Source: Candidatus Thorarchaeota archaeon (GTDB lineage Archaea; Asgardarchaeota; Thorarchaeia; Thorarchaeales; Thorarchaeaceae). Taken from it: a DNA stretch of 28,091 nucleotides. The position numbers and the translations under genes are program-made. This document shows, piece by piece, positions 9,390 through 12,300 of this stretch. The DNA lies in NCBI GenBank assembly GCA_003345555.1, contig PRDJ01000047.1:1-28091 (forward strand). The letters are read 5' to 3'. Positions within the stretch are counted from its first letter, which is position 1, and every line of letters begins with the position of its first letter. The notes below the pieces were generated by a model. It made no database searches. It saw only the letters and a list, made by a program, of their open reading frames with translations, and was not told the origin of the DNA.

Positions 9390-12300
9390 GATTCGCACGC
9401 CTCGGACATTAGTAGCGGTGAGCTGAACACGTCGCCGAAGCTTCGTGCTTACACCCCCGCCCTATTTACCTCGTCTTTTACGAGAGTCCTCGTTTACAAG
9501 CTGTGCGTTACTGTCACCAGTCCCACACTGGGTCTAAACCCAACGCTTGCAAAGTGGGTGTCTATTTTCCGGTCTGACTTCACGCTTAGATGCATTCAGC
9601 GTTTATCCATTATGACTCAGCTACTCGACAATGCCCTCTCGGACAATCGATATACCGTAGGCCACGCCCTATAGTTCCTCTCGTACCGTATAGCGCCTGC
9701 CGTCAGACACCCAACAGTTCTAGGAGATAAAAACCAACCTGTCTCGCAACGGTCTAAACCCAGCTCACGTTCGGTTTTAATCGGTGAGCACCCGCACCCT
9801 TCCCGCCTTATGCAACGGGAGGATACCAAGAGCCGACGTCGAGGAAGCAAGCCGCGCGGTCGATATGAACTCTTGCGCGCGACGACTCTGTTACCCCTGG
9901 GGTAAGTTTTCTGTCATGTCTACCGCTCACAATAGGCCGATAAACGTTCGCTAGGCCAGCGTTTCCGCCCAGGATCCGTCGTGTTGCAGGATCCTGTCAG
10001 CCGAGCTTATGCCCTTAATCTCAACGAGACGTTCCCGTCGCCTCTGAGCTCAGCATTGGTCACGGCTGATCTCTTGTCAGCCGTGTGCCGCCCCAGCCGA
10101 ACTGCCTATCTGCCAGTGTCCCCGAAGACTCTTGCCTCGGGTTAGCCGTCCCCAGTTAGACAGTCAGTATTACATGATCGCATCCACAGACCCCGAAGAG
10201 TCTGCTTCGTCGCTCCTGACTATGCTCTGTGCCGGACCAGAAACGGCAATGACAGACTGCGTAGTAAACCTCCGCAGGGACTTCTTATCCCCCTAGAACC
10301 ACGTATCCTATTCGATACGTTGTGACTTCACCGGGTCCCTCCTTGGGACAGTGGGGAGCTCGTTGATCCCTTCATGCACGTCGGCATTTAACCGACAAGG
10401 CATTTGGCTACCTTAAGAGACTCATAGTTAGTCCCGGCGTTAACCCGTGCTTCGACCCATTTCTGGGCTTTAACAGACGGGCACAGACCAGGATTGACCC
10501 ACTGTACTAACGCTTACGCGCTCGCAGTGAGCTATGTTTTTATTATACAGTTGGCACCCCCGAGTTACTAAGGCCTAGGAAAGCTTTCACCAACCCAGGC
10601 ACGGCACATCCCGAAGTTATGCCGCTAATTGGCCGATTTCCCTAAGGAGAGTGATTCCCGATACACCTTGGCCTGCTCAGCCAGGGAACCTGTGTCGGTT
10701 CTGGGTACGGACTCGGAGAATTCTTCCGGACTCGTTTTTCACGGTCACCAGAAATCAACCAAACGGATGTCCAACCACCCGCTATTCCACCTTTTACCTG
10801 CCTCTCACCATTACGGTACTTGGCACGCTTATAGTGTTAAACACAGCGAGAGCCGTGCTTGGTCTACCCCGATGTGTCGCAAGTCCGGCATAGCGTTGCC
10901 GCGAATCGTATCTCCGAGGTTCAGGACTATTAACCTGATTCCCTTTCATGACGCTCGTGTTACGACGTCACTTAGGACCGACTGAACTTCGGCTGACGAC
11001 GCATCGCCGAAGAGCCCTTTCCCTTCCGGTGGCATGGATTCTCACCATGCTTCGCTGTTACTATCGCCAGGATCATCAAACCCGGCCGGTCCACAGGAGC
11101 TCACGCCCCCGCTTCTTCCCAACCGGATCGCTCCGCTACCAGGTCGCGCAGTCTTACCTGCGTGCTGCACGGTTTCGGTGACCAAATTTAGCCCCGTCCA
11201 TTTTCAAGGCCGAGAGCCTCGGTCTGTGAGCTGTTACGCTTTCGTTCGGGGGTAGCTGCTTCTGAGCTCACCCTCAGACTGTCTGTGGCTCTCGACTCCC
11301 TTCTTCACCGCACTTATCTGGTACTTAGGGACCTTAACCGTGCTCTCGGTTCTCCCCGTCTCGGCCTGCCGAGCTTACCCCGGGCACCCGACTCCTGCCT
11401 TCTACGACTCATGCAGCTTCGGAGTTTCCAGGATGGTGAGCAGCTTGACGCCGCCCGCGCCAATCCGAGAGTGCTCTACACCACATGATGTCTCCAGCAA
11501 GGCTTGCCTGCGAGCAAATTCGCGGAGAACGAGCGATCTCCAGTCTAGATAGGTCTTTTGCCCCTAGGCTCAACTCAACGGAACGAGTTGCACGTCAGAA
11601 ACCTTTCGGGCCTCCACCAGGCTTTCGCTTGGCTTCACCCTGGTCAAGCCTAGATCGGCTGGCTTCTCGTGTCATGAGAGTGACTTCACGCGCTTTCACA
11701 CGCCGCCCCTGACCGGCAAGCCGGCTGCGGGCTTGTTGGCTTCCCTTCGTTTACGGCTCGATGCCTTATCCTCGCCACGCCCATGAACTCCCTGGCCCGT
11801 GATTCTAGACGGATGATGCCGAATCGATCCGCTCGGGTCCTACACCGAGATCACTCTCGTTTCGTTCCCCGAGCATCTACTCTTTTACTCGGCATCCTTT
11901 TTATAGATCACTGGTTTCAGGTGCTTTTCACCCCGCTCCCGCGGCGCTTTTCGACTTTCGCTCGCGCTACGTAGTTAGCTATCGGTTTGGCTTAGTATTT
12001 AGGCTTCACAGATTGCGACTGCGATTTTTACGCGAGAAGACCGACCCGCGCTACTCCGGATCCAAGGACATGCCTACGCTTTACACCTACGGGGGTGTCA
12101 CCCTCTGCGCCACGTCGTCCCAGACGACTTCGGCTTAGGCGTGTTGGCAATTGTCCTTGGCCCTAACACCACATCCCTCTGCACTCGTCATGCAGAGATT
12201 CGGTTTGGCCTTTTCCCCGTTCGCTCGCTGTTACTAGGGGAATCACTATTGTTTTCTTTTCCTGCTCGTACTAAGATGCTTCAATTCCGAGCGTTCCCAA

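Follow-up and report, generated by a model that had tools for sequence, protein, structure and literature searches.

Does the ribosome of a thorarchaeon carry a remodelled peptidyl transferase centre (PTC)? The question is raised by a 23S rRNA gene in the window, the whole stretch of 28,091 nucleotides from Candidatus Thorarchaeota archaeon analysed here (contig PRDJ01000047.1, assembly GCA_003345555.1). An initial annotation listed seven base states at PTC, exit-tunnel and sarcin-ricin loop positions that it considered near-invariant. It proposed a lineage with a remodelled PTC, and either natural drug resistance or altered nascent-chain sensing.

The window contains a single 23S rRNA gene that looks functional

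The window has one archaeal LSU rRNA gene, on the minus strand between positions 9388 and 12470. The match to RF02540 (2433 bits) is full-length (model positions 1–2987 of 2987). A search of the assembly (2.28 Mb, 93.5% complete, 82 contigs) for a second LSU copy found none, and there was no 16S gene among its contigs. Within the window itself no 16S, tRNA or 5S was detected; hence, the 23S gene is unlinked. Domain V is intron-free. The gene is flanked by a 35-nt inverted repeat, the pre-23S processing stem. The 5′ arm (35 nt, 12544–12578, minus strand) is 80% complementary to the 3′ arm (9323–9357, minus strand). Compared with the Rfam archaeal consensus, there is a two-base insertion after position 2079 (window 10255–10262) and an extended hairpin near 2210–2225 (window ~10120–10140). 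A gene for a bacterial-type RNase PH (12931–13635, minus strand; TIGR01966, 334 bits, above cut-off) lies just upstream on the same strand, and a WD40 beta-propeller protein of 295 amino acids is encoded at 15566–16453 (minus strand).

Positions are given in E. coli numbering. The register was set by Infernal alignment to RF02540, where the listed columns have top posterior probability. It was cross-checked using MAFFT, with E. coli 23S as the ruler (index+1 numbering, six landmarks); the archaeal controls were Haloarcula marismortui and Natrialba magadii. In a pairwise alignment with cheap gaps, 2055 and 2654 had no E. coli counterpart; the formal alignments resolved both. Infernal and MAFFT agree on all columns and a register shift was rejected. 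All seven base states were confirmed in these alignments against E. coli and H. marismortui: U2055 (10287), U2062 in the upper exit-tunnel wall (10280), G2448 (9894), U2497 (9845), C2504 (9838, also recovered by pattern search), a G2551·A2557 mismatch closing the A-loop (9791/9785) and G2654, facing A2666 in the sarcin-ricin loop (9687), all on the minus strand. Three further changes, absent from the initial annotation, are C2068, C2554 in the A-loop (9785–9791) and U2032 in the H72 loop (10310), the last a member of the contact network of 2055 and 2504.

The functional core is unchanged. There were no mismatches at 34 catalytic, P-loop, A-loop, sarcin-ricin and tRNA- or factor-contact positions (2061, 2063, 2251–2253, 2447, 2449–2453, 2500–2503, 2505, 2506, 2552, 2553, 2573, 2576, 2583–2586, 2602, 2655–2657, 2660–2662, 2664 and 2665). 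Thus, U2552 and G2553 of the A-loop are intact, as are G2655–A2657, A2660–A2662, G2664 and A2665 of the sarcin-ricin loop. The change to G2654 affects a single base of the non-canonical 2654·2666 pair and leaves the bulged-G core intact; the geometry of this pair probably accommodates a G·A. The helices of domain V also pair. As the initial annotation had proposed, A2056–U2612 and A2057–U2611 (10285–10286, with partners at 9730–9731) pair and covary across 88 sequences. The same is true of U2066–A2444 (partner at 9898) and G2073–C2436 (partner at 9906), for which the 5′ strand of H74, including C2068, occupies 10269–10276 (minus strand).

The substitutions are shared by related genomes. U2055, U2062, G2448, U2497 and C2504 are identical throughout the genus (4/4 genomes). 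G2551/A2557 and G2654 are likewise shared by all three of its genomes that cover these positions. The 23S sequences of congeners G001 and G003 are 94–98% identical. Taken together, the sole LSU copy found, the 34 of 34 core bases, the paired helices and the processing stem indicate that the gene looks functional. Since it is the only copy found, we infer that it is transcribed and assembled into active 50S subunits. The earlier description of a functional gene, in correct register and with a lineage-level trait, was therefore sound.

The substitutions fall into three phylogenetic layers

We compared domain V of 35 members of the Thorarchaeia family with that of 50 further Asgard genomes, which belong to 21 families. 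The named hits L033 and L035, whose coordinates and scores equal those of congeners G003 and G002, respectively, were dropped from later counts. The host genus includes Thorarchaeota OWC3 and MFD04408.bin.2.157. Across the 85 Asgard sequences the changes did not behave as one lineage-specific remodelling of the PTC, as had been suggested. Instead, there are three phylogenetic layers: Asgard-wide, Thorarchaeia family and host genus.

The first layer, widespread in Asgard, comprises G2448 and U2497. Each is the majority state outside Thorarchaeia (38/50 and 29/50 genomes, respectively). Covariation between 2448 and 2497 was rejected; there is no pairing rule, and the combinations GU, GA, AA, AU, GG and AC are all found across families. 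The second layer, belonging to the Thorarchaeia family, comprises U2062, C2068, G2073–C2436, G2551·A2557, C2554 and G2654. U2062 is present in 30/30 Thorarchaeia and 0/49 other Asgard. C2068, the G2073–C2436 flip and C2554 are found throughout the family. The G2551·A2557 mismatch is in all Thorarchaeia and also in Asgard family f17, and G2654 is in about 32/33 Thorarchaeia (29/30 to 32/33) and also in families f2, f7 and f12.

The third layer is specific to the host genus, and consists of U2055 and C2504, together with U2032 and A2056–U2612. U2055 is in 4/4 genomes of the host genus versus 0/26 other Thorarchaeia, and is genus-specific among the sampled Asgard. For C2504 the corresponding counts are 4/4 and 0/31. 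A pattern search of 400 Asgard genomes, 191 of which have an assembled 23S match, recovered C2504 in four, all from the host genus. A 20-nt pattern spanning U2055 to U2062 matched three GTDB genomes, two of them Ca. Thorarchaeota. At 2032 the host genus has U and 48/48 other Asgard have C. U2032 recurs in genus g12 (L015, L048 and L049), there with U2572, a member of the same contact network. The A2056–U2612 pair is present in the host genus, and the A–U flip at 2056–2612 recurs in other lineages.

We next placed these changes against overall divergence, using 278 core-invariant columns in which E. coli and H. marismortui agree with 90% or more of the other Asgard families. The host genus is changed at 18 of the 278, four of them in PTC or loop windows, and other Thorarchaeia at 15, including three in such windows. 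Other Asgard families range from 0 to 22 changes, with 19 in f29 (six in PTC or loops, including A2503C and U2500C) and 22 in f18 (five in PTC or loops). By this count the Thorarchaeia 23S is divergent, and fast, but is not an outlier among Asgard. In the PTC- and tunnel-facing loops of uL3 and uL4 we found no compensating indels, only scattered substitutions; the uL3 W-finger region has no indel when compared with other Asgard alone.

Other Asgard sequences have changes of their own. A genus in f29 (g81; L077, L078 and L095, e.g. G316:C138:24738-25544) has a PTC more altered than that of the window, with A2503C, U2500C, C2499U, A2497G, A2600G, A2430G, C2254U and G2056·U2612; G317 also has C2059. 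Position 2068 is deleted in f17 (L079–L081) and f14 (L083 and L092), together with G2069A, C2442U and U2586C. The single f18 sequence (L088, G106:C57) has A2453U, C2499U, G2509U–C2579A and G2588C–G2607U. In one Thorarchaeia 23S (L012, G010) A2064 is opposite G2446, breaking an otherwise invariant C–G pair. Insertions of 144–793 nt are present at about 2450/2451, inside the PTC loop, at 15 Asgard loci (L011–L013, L015, L018, L026, L052–L055, L084–L086, L089 and L090), and are probably rRNA introns. Further insertions occur near 2441, 2475 and 2570–2600, and in the sarcin-ricin loop of family f13.

U2062 and C2504 are also found in Thermoproteota

Within the Asgard sample U2062 is unique to Thorarchaeia. 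Among archaea it is not, since it is separately present in Thermoproteota. A pattern search found U2062 in a non-Thorarchaeia context in at least 120 metagenome contigs. Eighty of these, all archaeal LSU sequences, were placed in a tree of short fragments, where they group separately from Thorarchaeia. Proteins encoded near the U2062 rRNAs group with those of Bathyarchaeia, Nitrososphaeria/Nitrososphaerales and other Thermoproteota. A pattern that left 2062 open matched 230 of 401 genomes of Thermoproteota, to which Bathyarchaeota B24 belongs. By hand count U2062 is in 32 of ~143 genomes among the matches listed, a rough fraction, and in those rRNA matches it is U, rather than C or G, that appears at 2062. 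Some carriers are high-GC rRNAs, likely from thermophiles. A literature search, with most subscription journals outside its scope, found no description of U2062 as a natural state in different archaeal clades, and nothing direct on 2062 in Thorarchaeia or Bathyarchaeia, on A2654 mutants or on the Halobacterium mutants.

Among the metagenome hits, G2448 (19/50) and C2554 (41/59) are common, whereas U2055 occurs in 1/80 and G2654 in 0/60. The bacterial state C2055 is found in 23/80 of these hits, and in 9/9 members of the largest Asgard family, f9 (L062–L071 and others). Several groups among these hits have heavily rewritten 2490–2504 segments in addition to U2062 (L104, L111, L133, L135, L139, L140, L148, L153, L167 and L173); one of these, the Bathyarchaeia-type L167, has U2503 with C2504.

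A separate C2504 group consists of four Thermoproteota genomes (L243–L246; G599, G659, G801 and G623), which have A2499, A2445, U2065, C2554 and C2555, and retain A2055. Obligate coupling of U2055 and C2504 was therefore rejected. Overall, C2504 was recovered from at least 4 of 401 Thermoproteota genomes, with a pattern that probably misses Pyrobaculum-type sequences. The same literature search found no report of the U2055/C2504 pair. Among archaea, near-invariance holds only for the sites of C2504 and U2055. It fails at 2448 and 2497, where the window has the Asgard majority states, at 2062, given Thermoproteota, and at 2654, given three other Asgard families. Across archaea the states at 2448, 2497 and 2062 are common, that at 2654 is partly so, and those at 2055 and 2504 are not.

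Predicted consequences of the substitutions

The consequences described here are transferred from bacterial ribosome mutants. Saturation mutagenesis of E. coli scores 2062, 2448, 2497, 2504, 2551, 2554 and 2557 as flexible (PMC7049736). Of the seven base states, all except those at 2055 and 2654 are at positions scored in this way. In E. coli, A2062U is at 94% of wild type (PMC7049736), and U at 2062 is enriched in a fitness library. By analogy, peptidyl transfer is likely to be normal.

The initial annotation was correct that 2062 is needed for some nascent-peptide stalling. A2062 and A2503 pair via their Hoogsteen faces (PMC8614978), and A2062U abolishes stalling by SecM and ErmC (PMC3022528). 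In cryo-EM, the E. coli A2062U ribosome has a widened upper tunnel with the constriction relieved (10.64898/2026.06.01.729415). The upper tunnel of the host ribosome, with no A2062·A2503 pair, is likely wider in the same way. Loss of the pair would remove a relay for SecM/ErmC-type arrest, and should reduce intrinsic stalling at proline runs.

The role of 2055 and 2504 in A-site-cleft drug specificity was also upheld. In simulations of the Haloarcula 50S subunit A2055 stacks on U2504, in a network that includes 2032, 2499, 2500 and 2572; 2032, 2055, 2504 and 2572 form a known A-site-cleft drug-resistance network (PMC4652758). Thermus U2504C is viable, resistant to chloramphenicol and weakly resistant to lincomycin and tylosin (PMC7345174). 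Because the A2055/U2504 stack is lost within one contact network, it is likely that 2032, 2055, 2500, 2504 and 2572, behind the A-site cleft, are locally repacked in the host genus. The U2055–C2504 coupling itself rests on one branch. The drug profile of the ribosome is likely shifted.

Tolerated variation or selection?

We think it probable that the window encodes a working 23S rRNA with fixed catalytic bases, in which tolerated second-shell substitutions have accumulated in three layers. The wider tunnel, the lost relay and the shift in drug profile would then be side effects, and would not have driven fixation. One observation stands against tolerated variation: U2062 is fixed family-wide and is found again in several archaeal groups that are unrelated.

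Recurrence of U, the gain of function of A2062U and its enrichment in the library fit selection better than pure drift. A2062U may be a recurrent, selected tunnel-widening design that eases translation of proline-rich or stall-prone sequences and removes the A2062–A2503 sensing relay, accompanied in the host genus by a repacked A-site cleft in which U2032, U2055 and C2504 are coupled. We regard this reading as unlikely. Its scope would be all Thorarchaeia, many Bathyarchaeia and some Nitrososphaeria. If it is true, nature has repeatedly arrived at the change that was engineered in 2026 to handle difficult monomers, and the U2032/U2055/C2504 repacking is an arrangement unseen in any solved ribosome. 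With the phenotype and cryo-EM structure of A2062U available from E. coli, the proline-run content and pausing of U2062 lineages are directly testable.

A narrower proposal, that U2062 was repeatedly selected because a wider upper tunnel handles proline runs or stall-prone sequences with less help from aIF5A, seems to us improbable. Without EF-P, E. coli A2062U ribosomes perform up to 10-fold better on 2–4 consecutive prolines and equal wild type on normal sequences; A2062C is worse, and the gain of function is seen for A2062U only. Conversely, with EF-P present, wild-type ribosomes outdo A2062U 2–3 fold (10.64898/2026.06.01.729415). The presence of U2062 in separate archaeal clades agrees with the proposal. 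So does an uncontrolled count, on a crude ORF set from the host genome alone, in which proline runs are not depleted (PPP, 70 versus 56 expected; PPPP, 8 versus 2.6). Loss of aIF5A was considered as an explanation for U2062 and rejected; a Pfam domain search missed the gene and tblastn found an intact copy in the host genome (C77:14250-14642) with a hypusine-type KHG motif. aIF5A was found in 33/39 genomes of the Thorarchaeia family, which also counts against a reduced need for the factor.

Selection for resistance to the tunnel and A-site antibiotics of sediment neighbours, acting on the set of changes and above all on U2062 and the U2055/C2504 pair of the host genus, is in our judgement quite improbable. 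In bacteria, A2062U confers macrolide resistance (PMC7049736), U2504C protects Thermus as described above, and three members of the 2032/2055/2504/2572 network are changed in the host genus. Conversely, U2504C does not confer tiamulin resistance (PMC7345174), the changes arose at different phylogenetic depths, and U2062 also occurs in high-GC, likely thermophilic, Thermoproteota rRNAs. The states are genus- or family-fixed, or common in a phylum, rather than a recent allele restricted to one strain. Host-lineage ribosomes already have the archaeal G2058, in the presence of which U2062 should have little added effect against macrolides. The linezolid mutant of Halobacterium at 2062 is reportedly A2062C, not U. 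Selection for drug resistance is unsupported, and nothing in the ecology or phenotype points to it.

An assembly error, chimera or decaying pseudogene copy is very unlikely, even though the source is a metagenome-assembled genome in 82 contigs with no 16S gene assembled, because the same states are in the genus's four genomes, with the family layer in 26–31 further Thorarchaeia, compensatory pairs kept, the core intact and no other LSU copy found.

Comparison with known systems

Our preferred reading, tolerated second-shell variation around a fixed core, can be set against several described ribosomes. Surveys of drug sites in bacteria and eukaryotes (bioRxiv 10.1101/2024.10.31.621234, 10.1101/2024.11.28.625670) find lineage-specific variation at drug-contact residues to be common; they are without archaea, and do not name 2062, 2055 or 2504 in the main text. 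Spontaneous mutants of Rhodothermus (A2062C/G; PMC8614978) and Thermus (U2504C; PMC7345174) share positions 2062 and 2504 with the window. These are selected single mutants of one strain, whereas the states in the window are genus- or family-fixed and have neighbouring co-changes. The 2055–2504 model of A-site-cleft drug specificity can be tested on the naturally occurring U2055/C2504 pair.

The E. coli ribosome engineered to carry A2062U (Kent et al., 10.64898/2026.06.01.729415; PMC7049736, PMC10146877) has U at tunnel position 2062, like that of the window, and an unchanged A2503. It was made in the laboratory, and its background is bacterial (A2058, C2055, EF-P); the U of the window is a natural archaeal state. 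Kent et al. refer to natural variation and to macrolide-resistant strains of bacteria; archaea are absent from their text (10.64898/2026.06.01.729415).

The closest described case is that of the divergent PTCs of Pyrobaculum calidifontis, Thermoprotei and Methanomethylicia (Nissley et al., bioRxiv 10.1101/2024.11.12.623245), whose text makes no mention of Asgard, Thor, 2062, 2448 or 2497. Heritable changes of the PTC shell, C2504, C2554 in the A-loop and an otherwise working centre are common to these ribosomes and the window. The described PTCs are changed over 2447–2453 and 2500–2504 (A2447, C2453, C2500, A2501 and C2504). Within these spans the window has one clade-fixed change, C2504, in 4/4 of the genus; G2448 also lies there but is Asgard-common. 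The Pyrobaculum combination of A2447, C2453, C2500 and A2501 with rearranged triples is absent from the window's 23S, in which G2447, A2453, U2500 and C2501 are canonical and C2504 is accompanied by U2055 and U2032. The best reading is that the shell variation resembles the kind described for Pyrobaculum, for which there is a solved structure. Taken alone, the window's gene is one further lineage variant and not a new system; the host 23S is a milder, different combination of the same kind as the divergent archaeal PTCs.
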